Shown here: positions 7,770 to 58,757 of the stretch, in pieces
How the letters are laid out: each line of letters starts with the position of its first letter
Numbering within the stretch: position 1 is the first letter of the stretch
Origin: Candidatus Krumholzibacteriia bacterium
GTDB lineage: Bacteria; Krumholzibacteriota; Krumholzibacteriia; WVZY01; JAKEHA01
DNA length: 63,235 nt
Assembly (NCBI GenBank): GCA_036273975.1
Contig: DASUGO010000103.1
Span: 1 to 63,235, forward strand
Direction of reading: 5' to 3'
Made by a program: the position numbers and the translations under genes
Notes under the pieces: generated by a model
What the model saw: the letters and a program-made list of their open reading frames with translations, nothing else
Database searches by the model: none
What the model was told of the DNA's origin: nothing

Positions 7770-7793
7770 CCACCCCTCCCCGCAAGCGGGAAT

Positions 7794-10243: not shown

Positions 10244-10279
10244 AGCGGGGTTACCGGCGGCGGGCAAATCGCCTGCGGG

Positions 10280-11806: not shown

Positions 11807-11822
11807 GTCGTTCCCTGCCTCA

Positions 11823-14776: not shown

Positions 14777-14790
14777 GCGTCCTCCCGTGG

Positions 14791-16341
14791 TCAGGGCTGT
14801 CCGGGGTCCGCGGGCAGGATGTCGCCCACCGCGGCCTCGACCGCGCGCACAATCTCGCCCGACTGCGCGCGCGCTTCCAGTGATGCAATATGTCCCGCGA
14901 GCACGGCGTCACGCTCGAGGAACGGTACCGTCTCGCGCACCGCGTCGCGCGCGGCCGCGCCACCGCGCCCGGGCAGCAGCGGCCGATGGAAGTCGACCGC
15001 CTGCGCACCGCACAGCAGTTCGACCGCCACGACGCGCGCCACATTGTCCAGCACGCGCGTCACCTTCAGCGCGCCGATGCTCCCCATGCTGACGTGATCC
15101 TCGAAGCCGAGCGACGTCGGGATGCTGTCCACCGACGCCGGGTGCGCGTGGATCTTGTTCTCGCTCACCAGCGCGGCGGCGAGGTACTGCGCGATCATGA
15201 AACCGGAGTTGAGGCCGGGCTCGGCGATGAGACAGCGCGGGACGCGCTCCCCGTCCCCCTCCATCAACTTGTCCACCCGCCGCTCGGCGATGGATGCGAT
15301 CTCGCTCGCGGCAATCGCCAGGGCGTCGAGCGCGAACGCCATGTGCTCGCCGTGGAAATTCCCGCCCGAGAGCACGTCGCCATCGTCCGGAAACACAATC
15401 GGGTTGTCCGTCACCGCGTTGATCTCGCGTGTCACCCACGTCTCGATCCACGCCGCCATGTCGAGCACGGCCCCCAGCACCTGCGGGATGCAGCGGAACG
15501 AATACGGATCCTGCACGCGGTCGCAGTCCCGGTGCGCCTGCATGATCGCGCTGCCCGCGAGCAGACGCCGGAAGCCGGCCGCCACCGCGATCTGGCCCGG
15601 GTGCGGCTTGAGCGCGTGCAGACGCGCGTCGAAGACGCGGTCGGTGGCCTGATAGCCATCGATCGACATCGCGGCCGCCGCCATGGCGGTCTTCAGCAGC
15701 ATGCGCGTACGCACCAGTTCGCGCGCCGCCACGGCACTCATCAGCTGCGTGCCGTTGATCAGCGCGAGTCCCTCCTTGGGGCGCAATTCCAGCGGCGCGA
15801 GTCCCGCGGCCGCGAGCGCGTCGGCGGCCGGCATGCTCTTGCCGCCGAACGTGACGCGGCCCTCGCCGATGATCGCGAGCGACAGGTGCGCGAGGGGCGC
15901 GAGATCGCCGCTCGCACCCACCGAGCCGTACGATGGCACCTCGGGCGTGATACCGAGGTTCACGAATTCCACGAGGCGCGTGACCAGCGCCACCGACACG
16001 CCCGACTGCCCCACCAGCAGCGAATTGGCGCGCAGCAGCATCATCAGGCGGACGGTTGCCACATCCAACAGCGGCCCGGCGCCGGCCGAATGACTGCGCA
16101 GCAGATTCCGCTGCAGCGTCACCGCGTCCTCGGCGCTGACCCGCGTCCGGGCAAACTTGCCGAACCCGGTGTTGATTCCGTAATGCGGGGTCGCGTCGCC
16201 GGCGAGGTGGTCGCAGAATGCCGCGCAGCGCTCCACGCGCTCCAGCGCGCCGCGGCTGGCGGCAACCCGGACCCCGCCCGCGAGAAAGCGGGCGACGTCG
16301 GCGAGCGTCAGAGTATGGCCATCGAGTGTAAGGGTTTGCAT
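14791..16341 (-). CDS. hutH: histidine ammonia-lyase
   Basis: 516 aa with the MIO-forming motif [15 protein letters not shown]. hutU and hutI follow it. Confidence 0.95.
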
Positions 16342-16362: not shown

Positions 16363-18102
16363 TTAGAAGTTCTGCTCCAGCAACACATGCACCTTGGTGG
16401 CCTGCAGCGAGACCTCATCGCTGACCGCGAAACTCAGGTCGATCCGGCCCAGACGCGACACGCTGCGCACGCCGAAGCCGAATCCGGCGAGCCCGCTGCC
16501 ATGCTCGCTCACTGCGCCGGCCTCGTTCATGGTTTCCTGCAGCACATAACCAACATCGCTGAACAGGTACAGGCCCTCGCGCGCGGTGCGGCCGAGCCGC
16601 AATTCGTTGCGTGCGTAGCCGATGCGGCGCCCGTGGAACTGGTTTTCGCGGTAGCCGCGCACGGTGCGCGCGCCGCCGATGTAGAACTGCTCCGACAGCG
16701 GCAGCGAGGCTTCACCACTCTCGAGCGTCTGCACCGCGCCCAGCAGGCTGTAGTGCAACGACCAGAATGCCGGTGCAAGCGCCTCCGCGGTGCCCTCGTA
16801 GATGGTCTGGCTCACGCTGCCGGGGCCGGTGCTGCCCTCGCGGTACGCGACGTCCTTGCTCGCGAGCGAGCCCGCGGCGCCCAGGCGGACATACGCGGCG
16901 CGGCGCTCACTGCCCCACTGCGCGGACACGCCCACCCGCCCCCGGACGCGCGTGGATCGCAACAGACTGCCGGTGCTGAACACGTTGCGGTCGACAAACG
17001 CGCCCAGCGACGCCGACGTCAGCGTGCCGGCCACGCGTCCGAAGCCGCGCTCCGCCTCGACGCCGAGCGACTGCCAGGTGTAGAGCGTGTCCTGCCCGGT
17101 CTGCTGGAGTTGAATCCCGAGTGCCAGCCGCCGCCCCAGAAACAGGCGGTCGTGGTAGCGGATCCGGGTATCGCTGCGGCCGTTGCCATCGTTGTTCCAC
17201 GACGCGCCGAAGTCCTTCAGCGTGCCGCCGATGTTGTTGAGTTCCAGCTGCGCGAGACCGCTGAGCACACGGTCCTGCGATCCTTCGGACGATGCGTAGC
17301 CGAGGGCCGCAACAAACGCGTGCGAGCGCGGCGACTCGCTGACCTTGACCACCGCGTCCACGCCACGGCCATCGCTCGCGACGCGCACCGTCGGGAACTC
17401 CACGTCGTCGAACACCCGGCTGCCCACGAGGCGCAGGTACATGTCCTCGAGTATCTGTGCGCGGTACGGCACACCCGGCTCGACACCCGCGATACGCAGC
17501 GCGAGTTCGGGACGCGTCTTCTTGAGTCCCTCGACCACGACGCCGGTAATTTCGCGCGCGTTGCCCTCCACCAGATACAGCGAGATGTTGACCTGGTTGG
17601 CCTCGGTGTCGAATCCGATGCTGTCCACCCACACCTGCGCGAACGGATACCCCGCCTGATCGTAGCCGGCCAGCAGGTCGCGCATACGCGACTCGAGTTC
17701 GTCGGGCACGAAACGGCTCCCGGGACTCAGCCCGAGCGCCTCGATGACCTCCGCCTCCGGACGCGACACCGCGCCGCCGATTCCCACGCTGCCAACGCGG
17801 GCCTGCTCTCCTTCGGTCACGAGCACCGCGTACGACGAATCCGCCGCCTGCTGGACGTCGAACGCGACCGACAGGTACCCGGCGCGCAGGTACGCCTCGC
17901 GCAGCGCGTCGATGCCCGTGGGCGCCGGGAAGCCGTTGGCGCGCAGCACCGCGGCCGCGCGCTCGGTGCTCACCACGCGCGTGCCGATTACGCGCACGCG
18001 TGCCGCAGCCGCGCGCGCCACGGCATCCGCAGCCAGCACGCACACGACGACCACCGCCGCGAGGGCAAATCTCCGCAGATATCGCCGGCTCCTGCACCGC
18101 AT
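16363..18102 (-). CDS. Omp85-family outer-membrane protein (POTRA repeats + 16-strand barrel), TamA/BamA-like
   Basis: 579 aa. It has a signal-anchor-like N-terminus, POTRA-like repeats (VVVEGLKKTRPELALRIAGVEPGVPY), the barrel motif FYIGGARTVRGYRENQF, and the C-terminal beta-signal ...VHVLLEQNF. The start overlaps the upstream stop as TGATG (18100-18104). Confidence 0.8.
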   Translation of the reverse strand: MRCRSRRYLRRFALAAVVVVCVLAADAVARAAAARVRVIGTRVVSTERAAAVLRANGFPAPTGIDALREAYLRAGYLSVAFDVQQAADSSYAVLVTEGEQARVGSVGIGGAVSRPEAEVIEALGLSPGSRFVPDELESRMRDLLAGYDQAGYPFAQVWVDSIGFDTEANQVNISLYLVEGNAREITGVVVEGLKKTRPELALRIAGVEPGVPYRAQILEDMYLRLVGSRVFDDVEFPTVRVASDGRGVDAVVKVSESPRSHAFVAALGYASSEGSQDRVLSGLAQLELNNIGGTLKDFGASWNNDGNGRSDTRIRYHDRLFLGRRLALGIQLQQTGQDTLYTWQSLGVEAERGFGRVAGTLTSASLGAFVDRNVFSTGSLLRSTRVRGRVGVSAQWGSERRAAYVRLGAAGSLASKDVAYREGSTGPGSVSQTIYEGTAEALAPAFWSLHYSLLGAVQTLESGEASLPLSEQFYIGGARTVRGYRENQFHGRRIGYARNELRLGRTAREGLYLFSDVGYVLQETMNEAGAVSEHGSGLAGFGFGVRSVSRLGRIDLSFAVSDEVSLQATKVHVLLEQNF

Positions 18103-21100
18103 CAGAAGTACGCCCTCGTTTCCAGACGGAATTCATGCTCGGTGACGCGGCGGCCGCTGAACACGCGCTCGTTGCGCCCCGAGTAGGTCGCGAATATCGA
18201 GATGACCCGCGAGATGCGCAGGTTCGGCGTGATGCTCCAGCGGTGGGAGCGTCCCTCGCGCGCGAACACGATCGGTTTGACCGCGGCGTCGCCCGCGTCC
18301 TGCACGCTGGCCAGCTCGTAGGTTCCGAACACGTTGATCTGCTCCGCGACCCGCCACACCAGCCGTGGGGTCAGGCGCAGCGTGGTCTGCTCGGCCCCGG
18401 AGTCCGAGTCCTTCGCCGACGACGCCTTGAGGTCGACGTCGAGCGTCGCACCCGGAACCAGGGTCACACCGACACCGGCCAGCGCGGACAGCCCGGCCAC
18501 GTCGTAGGCACTCCCGGTCCCGGCCGGAATTCCGTCACCCCCACGCCGCTCCACCTGACGCCCCGCCTCCACTGTCGCGGTGAGGCGCGCGGACAGGGAA
18601 CGCGACAGGCGCAGCGCGTGTTCGCCGTTGAACGAATTCTCGCGCACCCCTTCGAAGCGGTTGTCTTCGCGGTCCTCGCGCAAATACCGGTACACCAGCG
18701 ACACGTTCTTGTAACCATCCAGCAGCGACCAGTCCTGGCGCAGTGTGGTGGTTCCGAACACGGTGGTGCCGTCGCGCTGCAGCGCGGAAGGAAGCATCAG
18801 GTACACTTTCCACGCCGGGTCGTAGGTCGACTCCTCGCGCACGCCGAGCGTCTGGTCCAGCGAGACGTTGCGCAAGACCCAGCCCCCGAAGCCGGCGCCG
18901 CTGTGCTGCCGCGCCGAGGGCTTCCACACCAGCCGCAGGTTGAACCCCACCGAGTGCACCGGCGTCGAGTCCGTCGTGGGGAGAAACAGTACCGTGAAAT
19001 CTCCCTTGCCCTTGCCGACCGCTTCGCCCTGTTCGTTGTAGTCGCCCTTGCCCTCCCCGACGAACACCACCGAACGCTGCAGGGTGGCGACATCGTTCTG
19101 GCTGACCTCGTAGTCGGTGTCAAGGCGGAGTCCGATGGCGTCCCACGCGGTCGCCGCCTTGAGCCGTGCGAGGTCGGTGGTGTTGCGAGCGCCCGTGATC
19201 CGGTTGTCTTCGCGCCGGTGGATCAGCTGGGCCTCGATGCGCGTCGCGCCCGCGGAAGCGTACGTGACCAGTCCGCTCGTTGTGTTGTCGCGGCGCGTGT
19301 CCTTGAAGCGGTCGTCGAGCGGATCGACGTCACGCGTGTCGCGCTGCTCGGCGTCGAGCCGCCACGCCAGCCGCCCGCTTCCGCGCGAGGTCAGCCGCGC
19401 CCCCACCAGGTCGAACGCGCGCCCGCTGTCGGCCGCCGCCGTGTACGCATTGCGGTATTCCTCGCGCGTCACAATCGCGCCCGGAACCACGCGCCACACA
19501 CCGTAGCCGGCATCGACGCTCACGTGCCGGCGCGTGCGTTCGTTGCCGGTGCCGCTCATGTCCGACGACAATACGCGCGCCATGACCCCGCGCTCGGTGA
19601 GCCGTCCGGCGTTGAGCACCGCCTCGTGCTTGAGTCCGTCGAAGTCGTCGCGCTCGAGACGCGCCAGCGAATAGCGCAGACTGCCGAGATGGGTGCGCGC
19701 GACACTCGCGCCGAGTTCGCCGGTCACCTCGCGGCCGGTGAGCGCCACATCCTCGAGGTTCCAGTCGCGGTAGTAGTACCATGGCCGCGCGCGATCGAAA
19801 CTCGCGAAGCGCTCCTCGAGCACGCTGCCCGCGGCGGTGACGCCCGCGCGCCACGCCTCACCACGCTCGATGCCGATGCGCGCCTGCCCCGCGTGCCCGG
19901 TGTTGTCGCCGTCGTCCAGCGACGAGAAGCGGTTGCGGTCGAGGCGGCTCACGTTCCACTCGGCGTCGAAGGTGATATCGCCATCCGGCCGCCCCAGACG
20001 GGCCGTCGCCACCTCGCGCGTCTCCGGCAGCGGCAGCTCGCGTCCGACCACGTAGTTGCCCGAACCGCCGCCCACGAATTCGTAGTAGACCGTTCCGCGC
20101 GGCGAAAACCCGGCGCGCCGGTAGTCGCCCGCCCCGGCGGCCACCTCGACGAACGACACGATCAGGTTTCCGGTCACCTCGTCGAAGCGGTAGAACGCGG
20201 GCTGTCCGGAAAGCGTGTCGGCCGGCACCAGCACGTAGGTTCCCTTGCCGGGGTCCGTCGGCGACACACCGCCGGTAATCGCCTGCGACGCATCGTCCCC
20301 CGCCGCCGTGAGCACCGCGATGTCGTCCTTCGAGAACGTCACGCTCTTCGGGCGGTCCTTGTCGTCCGCCTCGCGCGCGACCACCAGCCCGAGACGCATC
20401 CCCGCCCCGACGTCGACGTCCTCGACGCCGGTCATCACCGTGGACCGGTCGTACTCCTCCGCCGTCACTTCGTAGTCGACCGCGATCTCGGTGTCGGTCG
20501 TAATCAAACGGCGCGGCGTGAACGTGATGGTCCCGGCGTCGTAGTCGATGATGTAGTCGCGATTCTGGCCGCGCTCGAGGCGCTGGCCATCGGCAAACAC
20601 GCGCTCGGTGCCGGCAATGATCACCTCGCGCGTGTTGCGCGCCTGCGACAGCAGCGGGTACGGCCCCTGCAGGCCGGTGGTCCCGCGAAACTCGCTGGTC
20701 CGGAACTGCCCCTTGGTCTCGGCCGCGGCCCCCACCACACGGCCGCGCCGTCCGAAGGCCGAGCCGCTGAAGCCGCGCAGCTGGCGCGTGAGCGGCGAAA
20801 AGGTGGACGTGTGGCTCTCGAGCGAAATGTCGCCCACCGCCGCGCGCGCATTGGGTCCCTCGACCTCCACGAACACGCGGTCGAAGTACTGCAGTTCCTC
20901 GGTGTTCCCCTCGGGCTGGATCGGGAGGTTGTTGTCCGACAGCAACGCGCGCACCTTGATGGTCGGCGTCAGGTTTCCCTCGACGCGCGCCTCGAGCGAC
21001 TGGTCGAGCGTCGACCCGCGGTTGCTGCCGGTCGAGAACGACACCGATTTCGTGCCGCCAAATACCAGATTCGGCGGCGGCGCGGCGGCCTCGCTCTCCG

Positions 21101-21452
21101 TGGCGACGACGCGCTCCGGCGGGGCCTCGACCGAATCCGGGCGCGTCACCTCGGCGGGACGCAGCGAGTAGACCGGCGACAGCAGAAACGGCTGGCGCCG
21201 GTAGTGGACGACCACGACCGTGCCGGGTGGAATATCGATGCGGAAACGAATCGTGCCGAGGTGGAGATTGACCTGGTAAACGTCCGGCGTCATCGTGACG
21301 CCGTCGAACTCGACGCGCACGCTGCCCGGCGCGATGAATGGCGAGCTCAGCGTGATACGCGCGCCCGGCTCGACGGCGCGTAGCGTGTCGGCCACCACAC
21401 CCCACTCCACGGTATCCGCGCGGGGGGCCCCGGGGCCCGCGAGTGCCGCCAC
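18102..21452 (-). CDS. very large (at least 1116 aa) uncharacterised protein with a beta-barrel-type C-terminus; family unknown
   Basis: Long ORF with coherent codon usage. The C-terminal half is rich in alternating-hydrophobic strands and ends ...EFRLETRAYF. The first canonical start (GTG 21452) leaves no signal peptide. A signal-peptide-like stretch lies just upstream in frame (see findings). Confidence 0.7.
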   Translation of the reverse strand: MAALAGPGAPRADTVEWGVVADTLRAVEPGARITLSSPFIAPGSVRVEFDGVTMTPDVYQVNLHLGTIRFRIDIPPGTVVVVHYRRQPFLLSPVYSLRPAEVTRPDSVEAPPERVVATESEAAAPPPNLVFGGTKSVSFSTGSNRGSTLDQSLEARVEGNLTPTIKVRALLSDNNLPIQPEGNTEELQYFDRVFVEVEGPNARAAVGDISLESHTSTFSPLTRQLRGFSGSAFGRRGRVVGAAAETKGQFRTSEFRGTTGLQGPYPLLSQARNTREVIIAGTERVFADGQRLERGQNRDYIIDYDAGTITFTPRRLITTDTEIAVDYEVTAEEYDRSTVMTGVEDVDVGAGMRLGLVVAREADDKDRPKSVTFSKDDIAVLTAAGDDASQAITGGVSPTDPGKGTYVLVPADTLSGQPAFYRFDEVTGNLIVSFVEVAAGAGDYRRAGFSPRGTVYYEFVGGGSGNYVVGRELPLPETREVATARLGRPDGDITFDAEWNVSRLDRNRFSSLDDGDNTGHAGQARIGIERGEAWRAGVTAAGSVLEERFASFDRARPWYYYRDWNLEDVALTGREVTGELGASVARTHLGSLRYSLARLERDDFDGLKHEAVLNAGRLTERGVMARVLSSDMSGTGNERTRRHVSVDAGYGVWRVVPGAIVTREEYRNAYTAAADSGRAFDLVGARLTSRGSGRLAWRLDAEQRDTRDVDPLDDRFKDTRRDNTTSGLVTYASAGATRIEAQLIHRREDNRITGARNTTDLARLKAATAWDAIGLRLDTDYEVSQNDVATLQRSVVFVGEGKGDYNEQGEAVGKGKGDFTVLFLPTTDSTPVHSVGFNLRLVWKPSARQHSGAGFGGWVLRNVSLDQTLGVREESTYDPAWKVYLMLPSALQRDGTTVFGTTTLRQDWSLLDGYKNVSLVYRYLREDREDNRFEGVRENSFNGEHALRLSRSLSARLTATVEAGRQVERRGGDGIPAGTGSAYDVAGLSALAGVGVTLVPGATLDVDLKASSAKDSDSGAEQTTLRLTPRLVWRVAEQINVFGTYELASVQDAGDAAVKPIVFAREGRSHRWSITPNLRISRVISIFATYSGRNERVFSGRRVTEHEFRLETRAYF

Positions 21453-21516
21453 CGCCGCGGCACCGGCAAGCAGGACGGCGAGCAGGGGCCGGTACTGCGC
21501 GCGTATTCCGCGGATG

Positions 21517-22455
21517 TTACATCACCTTGAATGCGCGTACGGTCTTGGTTGCAGCGTCGGCAATGTAGAGGCGCCCGTCGGGTCCCAGCGCGACGTCGGC
21601 CGGGCGAAACGCGGCCGCCGCGTCCGCCACCAGCGCGCGGATCGACGCCCCGTCGGCGGCGAGCACGAACACACACCCCGCCACCGGATCGGCCGCGTAG
21701 ATGGTCCCATCCTCGGCCGCGACCGCGCGCCGCGGGCGGCGCATCGGATTCTCCACACCCGGCGCCGGCAGCGTGCGCCGGTGCGCGCCGGCGTCGCTGA
21801 AGATCTGCAGACGGCCGTTGCCGGTATCGGCCACCAGCAGGTCGCCGCGCGGCGTGAACGACACCCCCTCGGGCGTATCGAGCTGCCCGTCGAAGGACCC
21901 GTAGTTTCCAAACGACACGTCGGCGTTGAGATACGTGTCGAGCACGATCACCCGGTGGTTCTCGACGTCGGTGATCGCGAGGCGGCCCGACGCGTCGACG
22001 TCAAGCCCGTAGGGCGAGATGCGGCGGCCGGTGCCGAGGTCTTCGAAGTTCAACAGCACGTCGCGGTAGGACCCGCTGGAATCCCAGCGCAAGAGCATGC
22101 GGTCGGTCTCGTCGATCGCGTAGACGAAGAAGCCGCGGATGGAGACATCGGACGGGCGGAATGCGGGGCGCCCGGCGGGTTGTTCGAATTCCTGACAGCG
22201 TCCGTCACCCAGGTACGCGATCAGCCGCGACGGCGAACCGTCCGCCACGATCACGGCACCGCCGAAGTCGACGCACACCCCCACCGGGTCACCGGTGGCG
22301 AGGCGCGCGCATGGATTCCAGGAGTCGTCGAGCGCGAGGACGCCCGCCGCGGCCTGAACCGCGGACGGCGCCAAGTCCTGCGCGGGCGCGCACGCCACGG
22401 CGATCAGCAGCAGGGCGGCGATCAGATGCAAGCGGCGCGAGCGCATGGGTCCCAC
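21517..22455 (-). CDS. NHL-repeat beta-propeller protein, secreted or lipoprotein
   Basis: 312 aa. The signal peptide is RRLHLIAALLLIAVACAP. NHL-like blades repeat (PYGLDVDASGRLAITDVENHRVIVL; PEGVSFTPRGDLLVADTGNGRLQIF; PADVALGPDGRLYIAD). Confidence 0.75.
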   Translation of the reverse strand: MGPMRSRRLHLIAALLLIAVACAPAQDLAPSAVQAAAGVLALDDSWNPCARLATGDPVGVCVDFGGAVIVADGSPSRLIAYLGDGRCQEFEQPAGRPAFRPSDVSIRGFFVYAIDETDRMLLRWDSSGSYRDVLLNFEDLGTGRRISPYGLDVDASGRLAITDVENHRVIVLDTYLNADVSFGNYGSFDGQLDTPEGVSFTPRGDLLVADTGNGRLQIFSDAGAHRRTLPAPGVENPMRRPRRAVAAEDGTIYAADPVAGCVFVLAADGASIRALVADAAAAFRPADVALGPDGRLYIADAATKTVRAFKVM

Positions 22456-22482
22456 TCAGCCCTTTCCGGTGCGCGCGGCGGG

Positions 22483-23250
22483 TCAGAACGAACGCGTCAG
22501 CGTAAACGTGACGTCGAGACCGGCGCGGGCCGGTGACACTTCCAGACGATAGCCGAGATCCGACTGCTGGTTTGCGGCGCGCGCCGATGCAAACGCCACG
22601 ATCGCGCTCGCCACGCGATTGGCCGCGGCCGCGGCCAGCATGTAATCCGCGCGCCGGTACGCGGTCTTGCTCGAAGAGCGGACCTCGGAATACTGCAGGC
22701 GGTAGTCGTTGGATTCCCACTGCCACGGCACGTAGTCCTCGAGGCGATTCTCGATGAAGTACTGCTCCATCTGGTCCGCGGTCAGCACCTGGCGCAGGTC
22801 GTAACGGCCGTCGTCCTTGATGTCCGCTTCGTAGACGTTCGAGTTGTCGTACTCGCGCAGCGTCGCATAAAAGTCGTCGGAGTGGCCGGTGCGGTCGACA
22901 CCGGCAAAGCGGACCGCCATCTGCTGGTACTCGTCCTCGCGGCCGCTCCCCTGCTGCTTGAACACCACGTAGGAGATCCAGATACCACCCTCGATCGCGA
23001 AGAACATCGACGCGCGCTCTTTGTGTCCCAGTTGATAGTCGCCCAGCCCCGGGAGCAGCAACGAGTACAGCACGGCCTTCCCCGGCGAGATCGGCTCCGC
23101 CGCCTCACCAACACCACCGTCGTATTCCCACGCACTCGACGGACCCGCGGCGGCCGGCACCGACGCGGCGTCGCGCAACGAGGGCGTCTCCGCGCGCACA
23201 GTCAGCGGCAGCAAGAGGATAATCAGGCCGGCCAGCGTGCCACGCATCAT
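22483..23250 (-). CDS. uncharacterised envelope protein, paralog B (LYSLLxPGxG motif)
   Basis: 255 aa. It has the signal peptide MMRGTLAGLIILLLPLTVRA and the motif AVLYSLLLPGLGDYQLG followed by a hydrophobic helix. It ends ...DVTFTLTRSF. An ATGA overlap (23247-23250) joins it to paralog A. Confidence 0.65.
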   Translation of the reverse strand: MMRGTLAGLIILLLPLTVRAETPSLRDAASVPAAAGPSSAWEYDGGVGEAAEPISPGKAVLYSLLLPGLGDYQLGHKERASMFFAIEGGIWISYVVFKQQGSGREDEYQQMAVRFAGVDRTGHSDDFYATLREYDNSNVYEADIKDDGRYDLRQVLTADQMEQYFIENRLEDYVPWQWESNDYRLQYSEVRSSSKTAYRRADYMLAAAAANRVASAIVAFASARAANQQSDLGYRLEVSPARAGLDVTFTLTRSF

Positions 23251-24131
23251 CGGAAGTTCACCTCGAGCGCCAGTTCGCCGCCGTCAAAGCCACGCGGCCG
23301 CGCGCGCAGCGCCATCCCCGAGCCGTCGCCAGCCGGTTCACCGGCGCGGCGGTTGTGGACGATGATCGCGGTCTCGGCCAGTGAGAACGCGCGCGCCACC
23401 ACGCTGACCCATACGAACGCGCTCGCGTTGTCGAGCGAGTCGTTGCTCTCCTTGCGCATCGCGCGATACTGGTCGCGCAGTGCGGTATCCATCGGGTACG
23501 GGTCGACCGGGTCCCAGTCCGACCAGCCGGAAATGTACCAGTCGTACTTGCCGAGATTCTCGTAGTAGTGCTGCTTGTCGTCCGACTTGGCGACATATGG
23601 AATGTAACCCGGCCATGCGCCACTGCCCGACGACGCCTGCCCGCACAGTTCGAGGTTCTCGAGCGTGCGCTGGCCATCGCCGTACTGCTCGACGTTGCAC
23701 GGGTGCTCCTGGATCCACTTGTCCATGTCCCAGTGCTCGTCGGCGAAGGCCTCGTACGCGGCGCGCTGGTCGAGCCCATCGTTGTGCTTCACGTAGTAGC
23801 CCGACCACGCGGCGATTTCCACCGCCACCAGCGCGATGCCGCGCCCGTAATACCCCATCGAGATCTCACCCGCGCCCGGGACGAGCAGCGAGTACAGGAC
23901 CGGCAGGTAACTCTGCTGTTGCGGCGCGCCGACGTCTCCGGTCAGCGCCGGATCGAACGCGAACGGGCGCGGGTTCCGCGGCGCGGCGATTTCCGGGCGC
24001 GCCGCCATGTCGCTGGACGGATACGAGGCCGCCGCCAGCGGCACGAAATCCGCGGGCGGCGAGGCATGGGCCGGGGCCGCGCCCACGCCGGCGAGCACGG
24101 CCAGGGCAGCAAGGGCGTTGGGTACACGCAT
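23247..24131 (-). CDS. uncharacterised envelope protein, paralog A (LYSLLxPGxG motif)
   Basis: The track ORF starts at 24197. ATG at 24131 has GGAGG 9 nt upstream and gives the signal peptide MRVPNALAALAVLAGVGAAPAHA. It carries the motif PVLYSLLVPGAGEISMG. Confidence 0.65.
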   Translation of the reverse strand: MRVPNALAALAVLAGVGAAPAHASPPADFVPLAAASYPSSDMAARPEIAAPRNPRPFAFDPALTGDVGAPQQQSYLPVLYSLLVPGAGEISMGYYGRGIALVAVEIAAWSGYYVKHNDGLDQRAAYEAFADEHWDMDKWIQEHPCNVEQYGDGQRTLENLELCGQASSGSGAWPGYIPYVAKSDDKQHYYENLGKYDWYISGWSDWDPVDPYPMDTALRDQYRAMRKESNDSLDNASAFVWVSVVARAFSLAETAIIVHNRRAGEPAGDGSGMALRARPRGFDGGELALEVNFR

Positions 24132-24214
24132 CAGTCGAAGCCTCCGAATGGGCGCCGGGGGCGTGGAATGCTCCCGGCGCCGGACAGGTTCGCTCAATCA
24201 GGGGGACACAGGGG

Positions 24215-25207
24215 CTAGAACGTAAAGTACAACGACCAGCGATGCACACGCTCGAGCGTCTGCGCCTGCGGGACGTTGGCGTAGTCGAGGGACAACTTGT
24301 CCTTATAAATGAATCCGAGTCCGTACGTCGCGTCCTTGAAGTCGCCGTCCTGGTCGTACACGTAGCCGACGCGGCCGGCGAGCAGGTTGACGTAGCGATA
24401 CTCCGCTCCGACGTGCCAGACCTCGCTCCGCCGCTGCTCGATGTCGCTGTCGATCAGCCACACCAGGCTCTGCTCGACGTCGAGCGTCAAGAGGAGGTTG
24501 CTGATCTCGTCCGCGATGGGTGTGTAGGCGGCACCCACGCGCGCGGTGAACGGCAGCGGGTCGCTCTGCTCCTGGTCGATGAACGCGATGTTCGGCCCCA
24601 TGTTGGTCAGGGAGAGACCGATGTTCACGCGCTGATTCGGAAACTTGTACAGGCCGCCGAGGTCGACGGCAAAGCTGGTGCCGGCGCCTTCGACGTTGTC
24701 CTGCGTCACATCCGCAGGCGCGTAGTCCACGCGGATGAACTTCATCGTGATGCCCGCGCCCATGTTCTCGCCCAGCTGCATCGCGAAGGAAGCGTTCAAC
24801 GCCCCCTCCCAGCTGGTGAACGGACGCAGGATACCGCCCTGCGAATCGGTGGCGATGCTCTCGCCGTAGGTGAGGTAGATGAGGCTGGCCGACCACACGC
24901 CGACGTCACCGGCCGGACTCGAGTACCCGAGATACTCGTAGTACACGTCCGACACGAGGTCCGGCACGAGCTGGCTGTGCATGAATGCCAGGTTGCGATT
25001 CTTCGTGAACGCGAGACCACCGGCGTTCCACCAGCCCGCGGTGGCGTCGTCGGCGACGGCCACGTAGGCCTCACCCATGCCGTTCGGGCGCGCGCCCGGC
25101 GGGATGGTGAGGGATGGGACACCGGCCTCGGCCTGTGCGAAGGCGTTGGAGTGAACCCCCAGGATCAGGACCGCGAACACGCCACCCAGTAGTTTCCGAA
25201 ACGTCAT
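24215..25207 (-). CDS. porV: PorV/PorQ-family type IX secretion outer-membrane beta-barrel
   Basis: 330 aa. Signal peptide LILGVHSNAFAQA. N-terminal signature PGARPNGMGEAYVAVADDATAGWWNAGGLAF (pattern aR..GMG...vA..Da.a.wNpagla). Ends ...WSLYFTF. It lies directly downstream of the PorU-like gene. Confidence 0.75.
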   Translation of the reverse strand: MTFRKLLGGVFAVLILGVHSNAFAQAEAGVPSLTIPPGARPNGMGEAYVAVADDATAGWWNAGGLAFTKNRNLAFMHSQLVPDLVSDVYYEYLGYSSPAGDVGVWSASLIYLTYGESIATDSQGGILRPFTSWEGALNASFAMQLGENMGAGITMKFIRVDYAPADVTQDNVEGAGTSFAVDLGGLYKFPNQRVNIGLSLTNMGPNIAFIDQEQSDPLPFTARVGAAYTPIADEISNLLLTLDVEQSLVWLIDSDIEQRRSEVWHVGAEYRYVNLLAGRVGYVYDQDGDFKDATYGLGFIYKDKLSLDYANVPQAQTLERVHRWSLYFTF

Positions 25208-25230
25208 GTAATCCTCCTAACCGACAGACG

Positions 25231-25260
25231 ATACTAATGCTTGGACACCCGCCCGGTCAA
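25231..25260 (-). promoter_or_regulatory. possible internal promoter TTGACC-N18-TAGTAT ahead of porV
   Basis: Minus-strand motif in the 65-nt porU-porV gap. AGGAGG lies 5 nt before the porV ATG. Confidence 0.3.
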
Positions 25261-25272
25261 GCCGAGGCTCCG

Positions 25273-28200
25273 CTAGCGGATCCGGGTCAGCTTGCCGCGC
25301 AGGACCGTCGGGGGCCGGTCCAGTCCCACAAAATCAACCGTCGCGACATACAGATAGCTCCCATTGGCGATATCATCACCCACCGCATCCCGCCCATCCC
25401 ACTCGACCCAGACTTCGCCGCCGTCGCGGACCTGCTGGATCCGCCGCACCCGTTTGCCGGACACGGTGTAGATCTCCAGCGTGATCTCGGCCCGGTTCGA
25501 AATTCGAAACAGGAACTGCGTCGATGTCTGGAACGGATTCGGGTAGTTCATGACGGCCTGCGCGTAGTAGTCGAGCGGGTCCGTCACGTCGAAGAGCAAC
25601 GTGTCGAGTGCCGTAGAACCAAAACTGTCGCTCACCTTGTAAACCAGACGGTGCTTCCCCACCGGAAGATCGGGCAGCGGGAACAGCAACACACCGGACG
25701 TGTCCGTGCCGCCATGTTCGAACGAGAAGAACTCGTTGACGCCGATGGGAACCGGCAGGTTGTCGATCAGGATCGCCTGCCGGCCCTCGTTGGTCGTGTC
25801 GAGGATGTTGATGCCGTCCTGGTCGCGGACCCGCGCCTGCACGGTGTCACCCGGCTTCACCGTCTTCAGCCCGCTCTTGAAGCCGAGGTCGACGCGCGGC
25901 GCGCCGTCCAGCTGGCGCAGCGCCAGCGAGTCGGCCAGCGTCGGCGCGACGACCACGAGCACGCTGTCCATCGCGGCGACCGCGTCGGACTTGCCGGCGC
26001 TCGCGTAGGCGGACGCCGACGCGCGTTCTCCCGTTGCCGCCAGACGCGGAACGCGGAAGCTGATCTCGAAGGCGCCATTGGTCACGTCCGCGCTGCCCTG
26101 GTAGATCACGCCCCCCGGGACGTCGTAGTAGAGCTTCGCACTGCCGCAGCGGAGGTCGTACTCGCGCGCGACCTGCGGCTCGCGCACCGTCACGTCGACG
26201 ACGCCGTTGAACGCGGTATCGGGCGCCCCGTTCTTGTAGACCTTCCCGCTCAGCACGCGGCGCGCGCCGGCCACCAGCGTATCGCCGGTGGCGGGAGAAT
26301 CGAAGTGTACCGGCTGACGCCCGGTCTGCAGGACCAGCGCGGGATCGCCGAGCAGGTTGTACTTGAAGTTGTTCTCCTCCTGGAACGGCACAAAGCTCGC
26401 CGCCGCGACGGCCGCGATTTTTGCGCGCTGCAGGCCGACGCCGACCGGTGTCAGCGCGCCCTCCGGCGAGCGCGGCATCAGCACGTCGAACAGCGCGAAG
26501 TCCACCAGCTTGTTCGGACCGGGGTACGTCTCCTGCGACGCGGTGATCGTCGCGATGGAGCCGCCCTCCTCGCGCAGCACCAGCCGCTCGGAGAGGCTCT
26601 TGCCGGCCGGGTTGGCGAAATCACCGACGGTGCAGCTGAACGCCATCAGGACGGGCAGACGCAGCCCGTTGTTCAGCTGGCTGACGTCGGACACCACAAA
26701 CACCTGTTCATCGGCCATCTGCTGCGAACTCCCGTGGCCGATGTAGTTGATCAACAACGCGCCGCGGTTCCAGGCATCGAGCAGGTCGAGACGCGAGAGC
26801 GGCTTGACCGTACCGATCTGCGGATACTCGGTGAGGTAGACCTTCTGCACGGACAGATACTCCGCCGCATGCTGGCGCACGATCGTTTCGGACTCATCCG
26901 TCCACTCGGTCTCGCACGCGGTCTTGAACGACGACAGCTCGTCGTCCGCGACCACCACGATCTCGCTTCGCCACGGCTCGCGCGTTGCCGTGTTCTCGTA
27001 TGCGATGACCTTGTTGACCAGCATCCGGCCCTCGTCGGCGGTCTCGGCCGGCATGCGCCCGATGGCCACGTCGAGGACGCCCTTCCCCGATATCTGATCG
27101 CTCGCGTCGAGTTGTCCGTACCACTCGTCGGTCGCCATCGTGTAGAGGGTGATGCGCGTAAAGTACAGGTTGGTCGGCACCAGGTCCGGCTGCTGGCTCG
27201 CGTTGTTGCGGAAGTCCACCGTCGCGTCGCCGAACAGCACCACGTAGCCGAGACGCGGATTGCCGTTGCCGTCCACCGAGTTCTCGTACAGGAACTTGAT
27301 GTAGTTGCGGATCGCCATCGGATCCGGAAGACCGCCCGAGAAGTTGTCGAAGATCTCCTCGGTCGTCACCACCTTCACCGACGGACTCGTGTAGAGCGGC
27401 AGGCGCCCGCTGCGATACGTCCGCAACTGCTCCGCCGCGGAGCGCAGATCCTTGTGGCAGATGATCAGCATGTTGGGGCCGGCCGGATCGTTGCGCAGGT
27501 CCGGCGGTGTGATCCGCGTGAGCGCGGGCGTCAGGAACCCGCCCGCGGTGCTGACCCAGTAGTGCCGGTGCCCGCCGGAGAGCGCGGCGGAAAAGCGCGC
27601 GCGGCGCCCGTTCCCCTGCGCGGCCACGTCGAGGCCCGTGAGCCCGGCGGGATTCCAGGGGTCGGTGACATCGAACGCGTACACGGTGCCCTGGGCGCCA
27701 AATCCGGCCGCGCGGAACGTCAGCGTGCCGGTGGTATCCGGCGAGGAGAACCCGACCGCGTCGGAGATGGCCCGAATCCGGCGCTCGTACCCCAGTGAGT
27801 ACCACGCGAAGTACATCTTGTCCTTGCGGTTGAAATCTCCCGGGACGCGCAGGTAGAACCGGTTCGATCCCTCGCGCAGGAAATTCGCGCGCAGGCGAAA
27901 CGGCACCCCGTTCTCGAAGAAGCGCTCTCCGGGCTGCGCATCCCAGATCAGATCGCCCACCGTCGACAGCGTCGTGGCATTGCCGTAGCGCACCAGGTAC
28001 GTCGCGTGGTGGCCGGTGTTGATCGTCGTCGTGTCTTCCGACGACCCGTAGCGCGCGAGCCCGACGGTGCGGAACTCCATCGGCACCGACGCCACGATGT
28101 CGCGCACGTCGACGGTGCCGAGGTCATAGAGGTTGTTGCCGGGGCGTGGCACGTCCACCCACAGCCACCCGTCGCCGCGGTAGTCGAAGTCGCTGAACAG

Positions 28201-29157
28201 GTCGCGCTCCTGATACTCGCGGTGGTGGTACGTCGTGCGCTCGGGACCGGCGGCCGGGGTTGCGTCGACGTCGGCCATCCGCGCGGGCGTCCCGGGCAGC
28301 GAGCCCCCCCATGCGAGGTAATAGACGTTCTTCTTCGCGCGTTCGTGGCGGTAGTACAACGTGTCGGCGTCCGGTCCGTAGAAATCCGACCAGCCCTCGA
28401 CGCCGACGCCGTAGAACACGACGCGGTCCGACGCATCGAACGTCCCGTCGCCACCCGCGTCCACCCGCACCGCGACTTCGCGCATCGCCTGGCCGGCGAG
28501 CCACGACGCCGTGGGATCGGTGAGTTCGCGTACCTGCATCCGCGCGCCAGCGGTGTAGACGCGCACGGTGGCCGGATCGATACCCGCCAGGCTGATGCCC
28601 GCGCCCACCAGATCGGAACCGGTGACCGCGTAGACGCCGCGCGTGGTCAACGTCATGCGCACCCAGTTGGGGGCGAGCGAGAACCACGGGTCGCTTCCCC
28701 CGGACCGGGGAGACGCCGGAAAGACATCGGTGTTACGGACCAGCGACTTCAGCAGCGGGTCGGCGGTGTTCGCGTCGTGGACGGTCACCGCCGGCGTGTA
28801 GTTCACCGTCACGCGTGAACGCGAAATCCCGGGCGGCACCGACACCCGGACCCAGACGACGCGGCTGCCGCGGTACAGGAACGGCTGGCCCAGCGAGACG
28901 GTGTCCGCGAAGGCGGACGCCGGCGCGTTTCCAACCGTGACGGTCTGAAATGAGGCGGAGTAGGTGCCGGTGGGAGAGATCGCGACGAAGAACGACCCGA
29001 TCTGGTTGGACGGGGAGTTGGGTGTCGTGGCCACCTCGACCACGATCTGGCCGTTGCTATCCGACACCGTGCGCACGTTCACCGCGGCATCGGTGGACGC
29101 GGCCGCGGCGTTGACGCCCAGCGCGAGTATCAGTGCAACAATCTTGACTGAACGCAT
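25273..29157 (-). CDS. porU: peptidase C25 (gingipain-fold) protein with a T9SS C-terminal domain; PorU-like T9SS sortase
   Basis: The track ORF starts at 29235. ATG at 29157 gives the signal peptide MRSVKIVALILALGVNAAAAS. C25 core: LIICHKDLRSAAEQLRTYR...VVLFGDATVDF. Catalytic His is in INYIGHGSS and catalytic Cys is in LMAFSCTVGDF. The C-terminus carries the NYPNPF-type sorting domain. Confidence 0.8.
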   Translation of the reverse strand: MRSVKIVALILALGVNAAAASTDAAVNVRTVSDSNGQIVVEVATTPNSPSNQIGSFFVAISPTGTYSASFQTVTVGNAPASAFADTVSLGQPFLYRGSRVVWVRVSVPPGISRSRVTVNYTPAVTVHDANTADPLLKSLVRNTDVFPASPRSGGSDPWFSLAPNWVRMTLTTRGVYAVTGSDLVGAGISLAGIDPATVRVYTAGARMQVRELTDPTASWLAGQAMREVAVRVDAGGDGTFDASDRVVFYGVGVEGWSDFYGPDADTLYYRHERAKKNVYYLAWGGSLPGTPARMADVDATPAAGPERTTYHHREYQERDLFSDFDYRGDGWLWVDVPRPGNNLYDLGTVDVRDIVASVPMEFRTVGLARYGSSEDTTTINTGHHATYLVRYGNATTLSTVGDLIWDAQPGERFFENGVPFRLRANFLREGSNRFYLRVPGDFNRKDKMYFAWYSLGYERRIRAISDAVGFSSPDTTGTLTFRAAGFGAQGTVYAFDVTDPWNPAGLTGLDVAAQGNGRRARFSAALSGGHRHYWVSTAGGFLTPALTRITPPDLRNDPAGPNMLIICHKDLRSAAEQLRTYRSGRLPLYTSPSVKVVTTEEIFDNFSGGLPDPMAIRNYIKFLYENSVDGNGNPRLGYVVLFGDATVDFRNNASQQPDLVPTNLYFTRITLYTMATDEWYGQLDASDQISGKGVLDVAIGRMPAETADEGRMLVNKVIAYENTATREPWRSEIVVVADDELSSFKTACETEWTDESETIVRQHAAEYLSVQKVYLTEYPQIGTVKPLSRLDLLDAWNRGALLINYIGHGSSQQMADEQVFVVSDVSQLNNGLRLPVLMAFSCTVGDFANPAGKSLSERLVLREEGGSIATITASQETYPGPNKLVDFALFDVLMPRSPEGALTPVGVGLQRAKIAAVAAASFVPFQEENNFKYNLLGDPALVLQTGRQPVHFDSPATGDTLVAGARRVLSGKVYKNGAPDTAFNGVVDVTVREPQVAREYDLRCGSAKLYYDVPGGVIYQGSADVTNGAFEISFRVPRLAATGERASASAYASAGKSDAVAAMDSVLVVVAPTLADSLALRQLDGAPRVDLGFKSGLKTVKPGDTVQARVRDQDGINILDTTNEGRQAILIDNLPVPIGVNEFFSFEHGGTDTSGVLLFPLPDLPVGKHRLVYKVSDSFGSTALDTLLFDVTDPLDYYAQAVMNYPNPFQTSTQFLFRISNRAEITLEIYTVSGKRVRRIQQVRDGGEVWVEWDGRDAVGDDIANGSYLYVATVDFVGLDRPPTVLRGKLTRIR
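25276..25554 (-). other. T9SS-type C-terminal sorting domain (FlgD-Ig-like fold) of the PorU-like protein
   Basis: The last 93 aa read VMNYPNPFQTSTQFLFRISNRAEITLEIYTVSGKRVRRI...GSYLYVATVD...GKLTRIR. Confidence 0.7.
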
Positions 29158-29429: not shown

Positions 29430-29451
29430 AAAAAAGCCGGGGGCGGCCGGC
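29430..29451 (-). terminator. weak intrinsic terminator after accA
   Basis: The minus strand reads GCCGG-ccgccc-CCGGC followed by TTTTTT. The stem is only 5 bp. Confidence 0.35.
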
Positions 29452-29508
29452 CAGGGGCGGGGATAACTCGAAACTGTTAAAGATGTTACAACCGAATTCC
29501 GCGCCCCG

Positions 29509-30489
29509 TCAAGTCGTTTCTTGTTCGTAGTACCCCATGTTGAGGTACTTCTTGAGGCGCCGCTCGCGCAGCGTCTCCGGGTTCAGGTGCATCAGGTAGT
29601 TGACCTCTTCGTACAGCGCATGCCCCAGCGTCTCGGCCGCGGCCGTCGGGTCGCGGTGGGCGCCGCCGGGCGGCTCGGGGATAATCCGGTCGATGATTCC
29701 AAACGCCAGCAGGTGCCTGGCGGTGAGCTTCAGCGCCTCGGCCGCCTCCTTCACCTTGCCCTGGTCCTTCCACAGGATGGCCGCGCAGCCCTCCGGGGAG
29801 ATCACCGAATATATCGCGTTCTGCAGCATGAGGATGCGATCCGACACGCCCAGCGCCAGCGCACCGCCGCTTCCGCCCTCGCCGATCACCACCGAGACCA
29901 CCGGCACGCGCAACGCCGCCATCAGCTTGAGGTTTTCCGCGATCGCGAGCGCCTGCCCGCGCTCTTCGGCGCCGAGGCCGGGGTAGGCACCCGGGGTGTC
30001 GATCAGCGTGATGATGGGCAGCTCGAATTTCTCCGCGAGCCGCATGAGCCGGTTGGCCTTGCGGTACCCTTCGGGGTTGGGCATTCCGAAGTTGCGGCGG
30101 ATGTTCTCGCGCGTGTCGCGCCCCTTCTGATGCCCGATCACGACGACGCGGCGGTCGTTCAACGTCATGAACCCGCCCACGATGGCCTCGTCGTCCGCGA
30201 AATAGCGGTCCCCGTGCAGTTCGGTGAAATCGGTGGCGAGGGCGGAGATGTAGTCGAGGGTGTAGGGACGCTGCGGGTGTCGCGCCAGCTGGACCTGCTG
30301 CCATGCGGTCAGGCCGGAATAAACCTCGCCGCGCAGGCGGTCGGCCTTGTCGGTCAGGCGCTTGACCTCGTCGTCCACCGACACGTTCTGGACGATCGCG
30401 AGTTGTTTGAGCTCCGCGATCTTGTCTTCCAGCTCGATGATCGGCTGCTCGAAATCCAGCACATAGCGCCGGGGCGCCCGCTGCACCAT
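29509..30489 (-). CDS. accA: acetyl-CoA carboxylase carboxyltransferase alpha subunit
   Basis: 326 aa; [13 protein letters not shown] and [22 protein letters not shown]. Confidence 0.95.
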
Positions 30490-57219: not shown

Positions 57220-57305
57220 AGGAGTCCGCCGAAATCCAAATCGGAAAACGGTCTTTCGCCAACAACTTCGTTTCCGCCGCCCCGGGCGCCGGTCGGACGG
57301 ACGAA

Positions 57306-58757
57306 ATGCAGTTCATGCGGTACCTCCCTGTTGTCATTGCGATGATGCTTGCCGGAGCGTTGCCCGTGCGGGCTGAGTACCAGCTCGAACGCGCGTTTCC
57401 GTCCATCACGTTCACCTACCCCACCGACGTGCAATCCCCCGACGACGGCAGCAACCGCATTTTCGTCACCGAGAAAACCGGCATGATCCGTTGCTTTACC
57501 GCCGACTTCAACGCCCAGCCCGGTGACGTGCACGAGTTTCTCAACCTGACCGGGAAGGTGCGCTCCTCGGGCGAGGCCGGCCTGCTGGGGCTCGCGTTTC
57601 ACCCGCAGTACAAGAACAATGGCGTGTTCTTCGTCTATTACGTTTCCAACTTTCCGTACCGCTGCGTGCTGGCGCGTTACCACGTGACTGCCGATCCCAG
57701 CGTCGCGGATCCGGCCAGCGAGGAGATCCTGATCGATCTGCCGCAGGCCACCGTGTTCCATAACGGCGGCCAGATCGCATTCGGCCCGGATGGCCTCCTG
57801 TACATCGGAATCGGCGAGGATCTGTCGGGCCCCGCCGCGCAGGATCTGACTGATTTGCGCGGGTCGATCCTGCGCATCGATGTCGACGTCCCCGGCGGGA
57901 TCGCCATGGCGCCGATGTACGAGGTCCCCGTCGACAACCCGTTCGTCGGGAATACCAGCGGCTACCGGGAGGAAATCTACGCGTACGGTTTCCGCAACCC
58001 GTGGCGTTTCTCGATCGACCACTACAGCGGCGAGCTCTGGGTGGCCGATGTCGGCGAGGATACCTACGAGGAGATCGACCTGGTCACGAAGGGCGGCAAC
58101 TATGGCTGGCCGTACCTCGAGGGCCCCGCGTGCCTCGACGCCATCGCGTGCGCGAGCGAGGGGCCGTTCGCGGACCCGTTCTACTACTACGATCATTCGG
58201 AAGGGATCGCGGTGATCGGCGGTCAGCGCTACTGGGGACGGCACACGCCGGAACTCGCCGGCCTGTATATCTTCGCGGACTACGCCGGCGGCAAGGTGTG
58301 GGCGCTGCGCTACGATGGCGCCGGCACCGCCGAGCGCTTCGACCTGGTGCTGAACGCGCCCACACTGCTGACCTTCGGAACCGGACCCAACCGCGAACTC
58401 TACGTGGCGTCCGTGGACGGATACCTCTACCGGATCGGCCGCACCGTTACCCAGGTTGGTGACCACGGCGCGCCGGCCGGGAACCGGCTGCTCGGCAATT
58501 ATCCCAATCCGTTCAACCCCGCAACGACGATCCGCTACGCCCTCTCGGCTCCGGGGCACGTCGTGATTGAAGTCGTGTCCGTGACCGGCGAGCGCGTCCA
58601 GCGCATCGACGACGGCATGCGGGCGGCCGGTGCCCACGACACGGTGTGGCGCGGCGAAACTTCCCGGGGCGGACGTGCCGCGAGTGGCGTATATTTCTAC
58701 CGGCTCGTCGTCGATGGCCGGTCCTTCGACGCGCGACGGCTGGTCCTGGTCGAGTAG
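57306..58757 (+). CDS. PQQ-dependent (soluble glucose/sorbosone dehydrogenase-type) beta-propeller oxidoreductase fused to a T9SS C-terminal sorting domain
   Basis: 483 aa. Signal peptide, then SGEAGLLGLAFHPQY, HNGGQIAFGPDGLLYIGIGE, NPWRFSID, and WVADVGEDTYEEIDLVTKGGNYGWP. The CTD is listed as a separate feature. Confidence 0.8.
   Translation: MQFMRYLPVVIAMMLAGALPVRAEYQLERAFPSITFTYPTDVQSPDDGSNRIFVTEKTGMIRCFTADFNAQPGDVHEFLNLTGKVRSSGEAGLLGLAFHPQYKNNGVFFVYYVSNFPYRCVLARYHVTADPSVADPASEEILIDLPQATVFHNGGQIAFGPDGLLYIGIGEDLSGPAAQDLTDLRGSILRIDVDVPGGIAMAPMYEVPVDNPFVGNTSGYREEIYAYGFRNPWRFSIDHYSGELWVADVGEDTYEEIDLVTKGGNYGWPYLEGPACLDAIACASEGPFADPFYYYDHSEGIAVIGGQRYWGRHTPELAGLYIFADYAGGKVWALRYDGAGTAERFDLVLNAPTLLTFGTGPNRELYVASVDGYLYRIGRTVTQVGDHGAPAGNRLLGNYPNPFNPATTIRYALSAPGHVVIEVVSVTGERVQRIDDGMRAAGAHDTVWRGETSRGGRAASGVYFYRLVVDGRSFDARRLVLVE
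58488..58754 (+). other. T9SS-type C-terminal sorting domain of the dehydrogenase
   Basis: The last 89 aa read LLGNYPNPFNPATTIRYALSAPGHVVIEVVSVTGERVQRI...GVYFYRLVVDGRSFDARRLVLVE. Confidence 0.75.

Follow-up and report, generated by a model that had tools for sequence, protein, structure and literature searches.

Knowledge of type IX secretion comes almost entirely from Bacteroidia. Numerous other lineages of the Fibrobacterota-Chlorobiota-Bacteroidota (FCB) type carry dozens to hundreds of proteins tagged with a C-terminal sorting domain (CTD), often polymer-degrading enzymes of sediments and soils, for which the export machinery has not been described. The subject of this study is a cluster of seven genes in which porU and a porV-family gene, known from the attachment step of the T9SS, or type IX secretion system, are followed by five further envelope genes, one of them encoding an unannotated protein predicted to be a giant outer-membrane β-barrel. 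The cluster (16363-29157, minus strand) lies on contig DASUGO010000103.1 (assembly GCA_036273975.1) of a Candidatus Krumholzibacteriia bacterium. The whole stretch of 63,235 nt was analyzed and is referred to here as the window.

Melioribacter is an example of a non-Bacteroidia FCB organism with many CTD proteins and no described machinery (PMC3534657, PMC4793230). Its genome paper lists numerous CTD enzymes, yet the only secretion pathways it gives are Sec and type II (PMC3534657), and TXSScan found the complete T9SS in Bacteroidetes only (PMC4793230). SprA, the T9SS translocon, was reported in 2025 to be FCB-specific and to occur in every FCB phylum examined other than Chlorobiota; gene identifiers were not given (PMC12611786). 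A literature search found no paper on the T9SS in Krumholzibacteriota or Latescibacterota, and the PeerJ T9SS sequence sets include no non-Bacteroidetes taxa.

The porU-porV cluster and its products

The seven closely packed, co-directional genes lie between accA and hutH and are transcribed in the order porU, porV-family gene, unkA, unkB, NHL-repeat gene, large-barrel gene, and Omp85 gene. The window contains about 67% G+C, and true genes were recognizable by the G+C content of third codon positions and by frame. A preliminary description of this DNA had given open reading frame (ORF) coordinates, strand and junctions, and all were correct on re-reading: a 65-nt gap separates porU from the porV-family gene, unkA and unkB share an ATGA overlap at 23247-23250, a 27-nt gap precedes the NHL gene, and the large-barrel and Omp85 genes meet at a TGATG junction (18100-18104). 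The motifs it quoted were found in the translations (YIGHGS, AFSCTVGDF, NYPNPF, GARPNGMGEAYVAVADDATAGWWN, and the C-termini RAYF and LLEQNF). After correction of the start codons of two genes, the large gene and unkA, all seven products have signal sequences.

For comparison, each of the seven window proteins was searched for in 83 related loci. The order PorU-PorV-(M6-like CTD protein)-unkA-unkB-NHL-barrel-Omp85 was kept in loci L001 to L023, in which the identity of the barrel protein ranges from 33% to 76%, and the full order was also found in a 4.3-Mb genome at 47% identity. Complete genomes of the Latescibacterota/Krumholzibacteriota type with the operon include CP070677.1 and OY970173.1. 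The position of unkA was likewise conserved. Every Krumholzibacteriota or Latescibacterota locus with enough flanking sequence kept this order, down to 33–35% identity of the large protein, in agreement with the earlier proposal that the five extra genes belong with porU-porV. The most divergent relatives (34–38% identity) have, after porV, an additional gene for an M6-like CTD protein of ~1,100 aa, which scored 216–230 bits against the NCBIfam model "T9SS-dependent M6-like inactivated metalloprotease" (cut-off 600). This gene, whose product has a metalloprotease-type fold and a CTD, is located between porV and unkA at 2388-5663 in L002 and 3690-7058 in L003, and is also present in L017 and L023. 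We conclude that the seven genes are one envelope operon, joining PorU/PorV to a second outer-membrane module.

The first gene, porU (25273..29157, minus strand), encodes 1294 aa from ATG 29157; the longest ORF starts at GTG 29235. With 563.3 bits against NF033707 (cut-off 420), the product is a PorU by the NCBIfam model, and it contains a Peptidase_C25 domain (PF01364, E 4.2e-85), its own sorting domain (TIGR04183, 27.6 bits; cut-off 23), and a signal peptide, MRSVKIVALILALGVNAAAA. The catalytic His (YIGHGS) and Cys (AFSCTVGDF) are kept, their roles being assigned by motif position. Both NCBIfam scores are above cut-off, which upholds the initial identification of a PorU-like C25 peptidase with both catalytic residues and a sorting domain. 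Models for the PorU2/PorV2/M6i "type IX sorting system" of NCBIfam were considered and rejected, because the classical PorU model gave far better scores for both the window protein and that of L003 (563 and 501 vs 168 and 67 bits).

The adjoining gene (24215..25207, minus strand) encodes an outer-membrane barrel of 330 aa with a signal peptide and the C-terminus YFTF. As had been proposed, it belongs to the PorV/PorQ family, scoring 229.9 bits against NF033709 (cut-off 90) and 74.9 bits against PF19572 (cut-off 27; E 9.5e-21). It reached neither the PorV equivalog model NF033710 (153.5 bits vs 250) nor the PorQ model (73.6 vs 220); judged by these scores it appears nearer to PorV than to PorQ, though below the PorV equivalog cut-off. 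Together, PorU as sortase and the PorV-family protein as shuttle barrel would carry out the type IX secretion step in which the CTD is cleaved and the protein attached.

Two genes for DUF5683-like proteins follow. As an ORF, unkA (23247..24197, minus strand) encodes 316 aa; its true start is probably ATG 24131, which gives the protein a signal peptide. The unkB product (22483..23250, minus strand) has 255 aa, a signal peptide, and the C-terminus TRSF. The two are paralogous, as suggested earlier (BLASTP E 1e-7; hhalign 98.6%, E 1.2e-15), and neither matched a Pfam or NCBIfam family above threshold. The UnkB protein scored 15.9 bits (E 0.014) against PF18935 (DUF5683), below the gathering score of 26.7, and UnkA had no match; of 44 UnkB homologs, 31 matched PF18935 weakly (best E 1.9e-5). 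An AlphaFold2 (AF2) model of UnkB built with the 44 homologs (predicted local distance difference test score, pLDDT, 78.3) has two short hydrophobic helices, long helices at 77–115 and 158–227, and a C-terminal β-hairpin at 232–253 that ends in Phe. No significant fold match to this model was found in the PDB, only generic coiled coils. Through their long helices and C-terminal β-hairpins, the two proteins may tie the module to the periplasm or the inner membrane.

The remaining small gene (21517..22455, minus strand) encodes an NHL-repeat β-propeller of 312 aa (PF01436, E 9.4e-26), a probable lipoprotein with the lipobox-like signal LLIAVAC. The last gene of the cluster (16363..18102, minus strand) encodes an Omp85-family protein of 579 aa that ends in LLEQNF and has three POTRA domains and a 16-strand-type barrel, in keeping with the TamA-like size noted previously. 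Its matches to PF07244 (E 4.6e-12), PF03865 (ShlB, E 1.2e-11), and PF01103 (E 6.7e-9) are all above gathering scores; residues 64–276 align to POTRA3–5 of BamA, and the VRGY motif of loop 6 is intact. It scored below the equivalog cut-offs for both BamA (TIGR03303, 107.8 vs 297 bits) and TamA (NF047950, 25.9 vs 625 bits).

The predicted giant barrel protein and SprA

The large gene (18102..21506, minus strand) encodes 1116 aa from GTG 21452, or 1134 aa from a probable ATA start at 21506. Because close homologs, which begin M(T)RAQYRPLL, have ATG at this position, the in-frame ATA (21504-21506, minus strand) is most likely the start. It adds a textbook signal peptide, RAQYRPLLAVLLAGAAAVAALAGPGAPRA; no ATG, GTG or TTG occurs ahead of that peptide, and the ATA is either a rare start codon or an assembly base error.

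A Pfam scan of the large protein gave no domain. Its sole NCBIfam signal was a local match to the SprA model TIGR04189 (34.6 bits; cut-off 200), in which residues 278–342 align with profile positions 604–666. Each of the 41 aligned homologs showed the same local match, as did members from KSB1 and Zhuqueibacterota. The protein carries two small SprA-type β-sandwich domains, at approximately residues 19–86 and 278–342. The secondary structure of an AF2 model made with 41 homologs (pLDDT 81.6; predicted template modeling score 0.68) shows about 36–40 strands of membrane length between residue 130 and the C-terminal RAYF, besides a small β domain at the N-terminus and two small domains that are inserted. 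The large protein is predicted by this model to be a single giant β-barrel, in the size class of SprA by strand number and with small extramembrane domains only. The preliminary description had called the protein barrel-type, and both the very large barrel predicted by AF2 and the top fold matches described below agree. The most conserved motifs of the family, PIQPEGNT (residues 177–184) and YYYRDWNLE (559–567), are in segments that AF2 leaves unstructured or of low confidence, and may act as loops that plug, gate or bind a partner.

In a Foldseek search of 350,542 PDB chains with the AF2 model, the top three matches were SprA chains (8gl8_A, 8gl6_A, and 6h3i_A; E 2.8e-12 to 2.7e-10), with low TM-scores (0.25/0.15) and in a position that the longest barrel of the PDB would occupy for any giant barrel. 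The next matches were TonB-dependent receptors, SlpA, and LptD (~1e-8 to 1e-6).

For comparison with SprA at the sequence level, Sov of P. gingivalis was taken from a paper supplement, and 120 SprA homologs of 2,422–2,547 aa were collected. Alignment by hhalign of 139 barrel-family members with 28 SprA sequences gave a probability of 70% (E 4e-5), confined to the two small domains, which are collinear in both families. When Sov was used in tblastn against the 83 related loci (up to 23 kb), no match was found; Sov does not detect the barrel family. A visual impression that the first barrel strands resemble the N-terminus of SprA was not supported. Membership of the large protein in the SprA family was rejected: it has no full-length match to TIGR04189, no PF14349 match, half the length, and no profile signal at the level of the barrel. 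A resemblance in fold and in the small domains was retained. We conclude that the protein falls outside the SprA family and is a predicted giant barrel of half the size, which shares with SprA a domain type and, in the model, a strand-number class.

The weaker Foldseek matches to LptD and TonB-dependent receptors, and an Omp85 protein that is TamA-sized and has three POTRA domains, could also suggest that the barrel/Omp85 pair is a TamA/TamB-like translocation and assembly module (TAM), or an LptD-like or usher-like system. We consider this very improbable. The large protein has no Pfam or NCBIfam match to DUF490/AsmA, LptD/OstA, usher or TonB-receptor models, and its identification as a TamB/AsmA-like protein, LptD, usher or TonB receptor was rejected because none was seen even at E ≤10 and the barrel is predicted to be closed. 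The AF2 model and its matches appear as closed barrels rather than as the open sheet of TamB, the Omp85 protein is below the TamA cut-off as given above, and the gene order is opposite to that of tamA-tamB.

Distribution, possible roles and surroundings

Homologs with a named source were from Candidatus Krumholzibacteria and Latescibacteria, all annotated as hypothetical. The family is far wider: a scan of one genome per species found it in at least 585 GTDB species, and a profile search of 1.84 billion representative proteins returned 3,565 clusters at E ≤1e-3 and 2,093 at ≤1e-30. About two dozen of the best 150 clusters were shorter, partial proteins; full-length members have ~1,050–1,230 aa. 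The family was found in Ignavibacteria, Melioribacter, Calditrichota, KSB1, Zhuqueibacterota and Chloroherpetonaceae, so that the barrel/Omp85 pair is not lineage-specific, contrary to what had been suggested as possible. The family was seen only in records carrying FCB-type names, with the exception of a few metagenome-assembled genomes (MAGs) whose labels are odd. Carriers include cultured Melioribacter, whose member is named hypothetical protein in RefSeq, and MAGs labelled Ignavibacterium album. A family of this extent (~2,000–3,500 clusters) is without a Pfam or NCBIfam model and goes by the name "hypothetical".

Three patterns were seen among the loci: the whole cluster, in Krumholzibacteriota/Latescibacterota-type loci; NHL-barrel-Omp85 only, in Calditrichota, KSB1, Zhuqueibacterota and similar groups; and the barrel alone, in Ignavibacteria, Melioribacter, and Chloroherpetonaceae. 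The NHL gene adjoins the barrel gene in both the Krumholzibacteriota-type and the Calditrichota/KSB1-type loci. In Ignavibacteria and Melioribacter (L074 7194-9658; L046 2343-9531; L039 15438-17884), the lone barrel gene stands beside genes that look like FtsX-type ABC permeases, a resemblance judged from N-terminal sequences, and is followed directly downstream by a NUDIX-looking gene; L046 also has genes for an apparent ATPase and an apparent outer-membrane protein.

The second and third patterns suggest one alternative, in which the NHL-barrel-Omp85 triad serves outer-membrane biogenesis or transport in general, for example as a very large channel for uptake or export that has its own insertase, and has no direct role in CTD secretion, its place behind porU-porV in Krumholzibacteriota reflecting co-regulation of envelope genes. 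In most other lineages the triad or the lone barrel has no porU-porV nearby, and the neighbors in such loci are housekeeping genes. The lack of SprA homology in the barrel itself is in accord with this, and hutH begins 21 nt after the Omp85 gene, so close spacing alone is no proof of shared function. However, the seven- or eight-gene order persists with coupling-type overlaps to 33% identity, the cluster of divergent relatives includes the gene of a CTD-bearing M6-like protein, and the small SprA-type domains were found in every member tested. A general module is a serious contender but, in our judgment, rather unlikely.

We tentatively favor a different reading, to which we would give somewhat less than an even chance: the giant barrel forms a conduit or platform in the outer membrane, coupled to PorV and PorU, and is assembled by its own Omp85 and propeller lipoprotein. 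The barrel would be the conduit or docking platform for CTD proteins, acting with PorV and PorU, and the Omp85 and propeller lipoprotein would either insert it, as a dedicated counterpart of BamA/BamB, or be its stable partner. The idea of a private insertase or partner arises because the Omp85 and NHL genes travel with the barrel in several phyla. Counted in favor of this reading were the tight spacing and overlaps, the family assignments, the deep conservation of order, the NHL-barrel-Omp85 triad, the AF2 barrel with SprA as its best fold match in the PDB, and the local SprA-model matches together with the collinear hhalign result, as were the presence of a terminator-like site upstream only (after accA), the CTD-bearing proteins that divergent relatives encode in the operon and the candidate close by in the window, the observation of the barrel family almost only in FCB-type-named records, and the many CTD proteins of Melioribacter-type FCB organisms.

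Several points weigh against a barrel coupled to PorV and PorU. No energy source (a PorLM-like motor) is linked to the module. Beyond Krumholzibacteriota and Latescibacterota the barrel gene is not beside porU-porV, and in Ignavibacteria it stands without PorU/PorV, NHL or Omp85 within 10 kb, so the link with PorU/PorV is seen in one clade only. The Foldseek ranking carries the reservation given with it. With a hidden Markov model of the barrel family, Sov scored no more than 19.7 bits, and that on one small domain; a search of PDB sequences with the family profile gave no match; and region-restricted hhalign of parts of the barrel with SprA gave probabilities of ≤3%. Finally, it is quite possible that a canonical translocon exists in the same genomes, given the reported distribution of SprA (PMC12611786).

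This last point leads to a further alternative, that a canonical T9SS (SprA, PorKLMN) is encoded elsewhere in the genome and the main translocon is not the giant barrel, which would instead assist attachment or sorting, either as a platform for PorV-PorU complexes or as a second channel through which the anchoring glycolipid or part of the cargo passes. The report of SprA throughout FCB phyla except Chlorobiota fits this (PMC12611786), as do a PorU that scores as a true PorU and a PorV close to canonical; equivalents of PorQ and PorZ are absent from the operon, so another component may organize the attachment complex. On the other side, no described attachment complex has a barrel this large, and canonical SprA or PorKLMN was not found within 10 kb of the barrel in any of the 83 loci. 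We regard an accessory role as unlikely.

The preliminary description had gone further and proposed a reduced T9SS, on the grounds that the window has no porK/L/M/N-like and no sprA-sized gene. Within the 63 kb that absence was confirmed; it is uninformative, because such genes are normally scattered around the genome, and the reported spread of SprA through FCB phyla (PMC12611786) weakens the proposal. In its strongest form it would make the ~1,130-aa barrel a compact, SprA-independent CTD translocon, part of a minimal type IX-like machine comprising PorV, PorU, the Omp85/propeller insertase, and the two periplasm-spanning helical proteins without a PorKLMN ring and motor, perhaps in other non-Bacteroidia FCB lineages as well as Krumholzibacteriota. 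Because Sov does not detect the barrel family in tblastn, the published statement on FCB-wide SprA probably means canonical SprA (PMC12611786), and for this reason we lowered our estimate for such a machine, which we now hold to be distinctly unlikely.

The locus links PorU/PorV genetically to a large, widespread and unannotated family of predicted outer-membrane barrels, and to an Omp85 of its own. Should the barrel handle CTD cargo, it would be a stripped-down SprA-type channel or a second class of channel, and a compact structural target. If it handles none, a predicted barrel of ~36–40 strands with its own Omp85 and propeller lipoprotein would be a new case of the assembly of very large barrels. 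A family so widely distributed and structurally unusual, with members in cultured bacteria, is worth following up; its presence in cultured Melioribacter, and in the MAGs labelled Ignavibacterium album, makes the question experimentally tractable.

A candidate CTD cargo is encoded at 57222..58757 (plus strand). The preliminary description had placed a CTD cargo gene at 57306-58757; the product is a glucose/sorbosone dehydrogenase (PF07995, E 1.3e-45) whose sorting-domain-like tail scored 22.0 bits against TIGR04183, under the cut-off of 23. The CTD portion of the PorU model matched it locally as well.

Upstream of the cluster are accA (29509-30489) and, after it, a terminator-like hairpin (29435..29452, minus strand; GGCCGGCCGCCCCCGGCT followed by TTTTT), a consensus match only, which marks the upstream edge. 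Counts in a scan for promoters and terminators were not above those of shuffled controls, so the accA hairpin is a weak boundary mark only. Downstream, the co-directional run does not end at Omp85 as first described: hutH begins 21 nt farther on, with no terminator found between them, and is followed by hutU (hutH/hutU region 13112-16341, minus strand). Either hutH or hutU is also downstream of the cluster in relatives L001, L002, L011, and L013.

The rest of the 63 kb contains housekeeping genes and a type IV pilus block (1-11887, minus strand) with PilC (3121-4338), PilT (4362-5459), PilB (5460-7391), a sigma-54 two-component pair (1-3203), a ComEA-like gene, a tetratricopeptide repeat protein (10280-11887), and an 807-aa protein without a family match (7794-10217). 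A 257-aa protein, also without a family match, is encoded between dnaE and accA (30526-31299, minus strand), and L001 has a gene of similar size at the same place. At 59525-60370 (minus strand) is a UbiA-type prenyltransferase gene, whose best matches are archaeal-type (di)geranylgeranylglyceryl-phosphate transferases (~200 bits, below cut-offs); FCB-group bacteria have been reported as possible makers of archaeal-like ether lipids.

Comparison with described systems

DUF5683 (PF18935) is an uncharacterized Bacteroidota family with which the two helical proteins share the motif LYSLLLPGLGD..G and the hydrophobic helix that follows it. The window proteins differ in scoring below the Pfam cut-off, in their greater length and extra long helices, and in the C-terminal β-hairpin.

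The Omp85 protein resembles the central proteins of the β-barrel assembly machinery (BAM) and the TAM in combining POTRA domains with an Omp85 barrel that has VRGY, and its three POTRAs and size are TamA-like. A β-propeller lipoprotein gene stands alongside, as BamB accompanies BamA. Unlike these systems, the window Omp85 falls under both model cut-offs, the propeller is a six-blade NHL type and not of the BamB type, and the partner gene encodes a giant barrel instead of TamB; an insertase dedicated to one client barrel is what we infer here.

SprA/Sov is the 36-strand translocon of the T9SS (6H3I, 8GL8; TIGR04189; PF14349). The window barrel is likewise predicted to be a single-chain giant with a comparable number of strands, and its two small β-sandwich domains match the SprA profile at ~600–690, collinearly. 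It is found in FCB-type lineages and is encoded with a PorV-family gene, PorV being the known partner of SprA; the link of the window barrel to PorV is genetic linkage. In contrast to SprA, it has ~1,130 aa and not ~2,300–2,500, is without most of the >150 kDa extracellular mass of SprA, and travels with an Omp85 and an NHL lipoprotein.

A further likeness is to the PorU-PorV attachment complex of the Bacteroidota T9SS. As there, a PorU that is above the model cut-off and has the catalytic His and Cys and its own CTD is encoded next to a PorV-family barrel. The window differs in that its PorV is under the equivalog cut-off, no PorQ or PorZ is in the cluster, the host is outside Bacteroidota, and five further genes are in the same operon. 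With PorU and PorV in one operon with a member of an unannotated family of predicted giant barrels and a dedicated Omp85, the locus is a variant around a known system.

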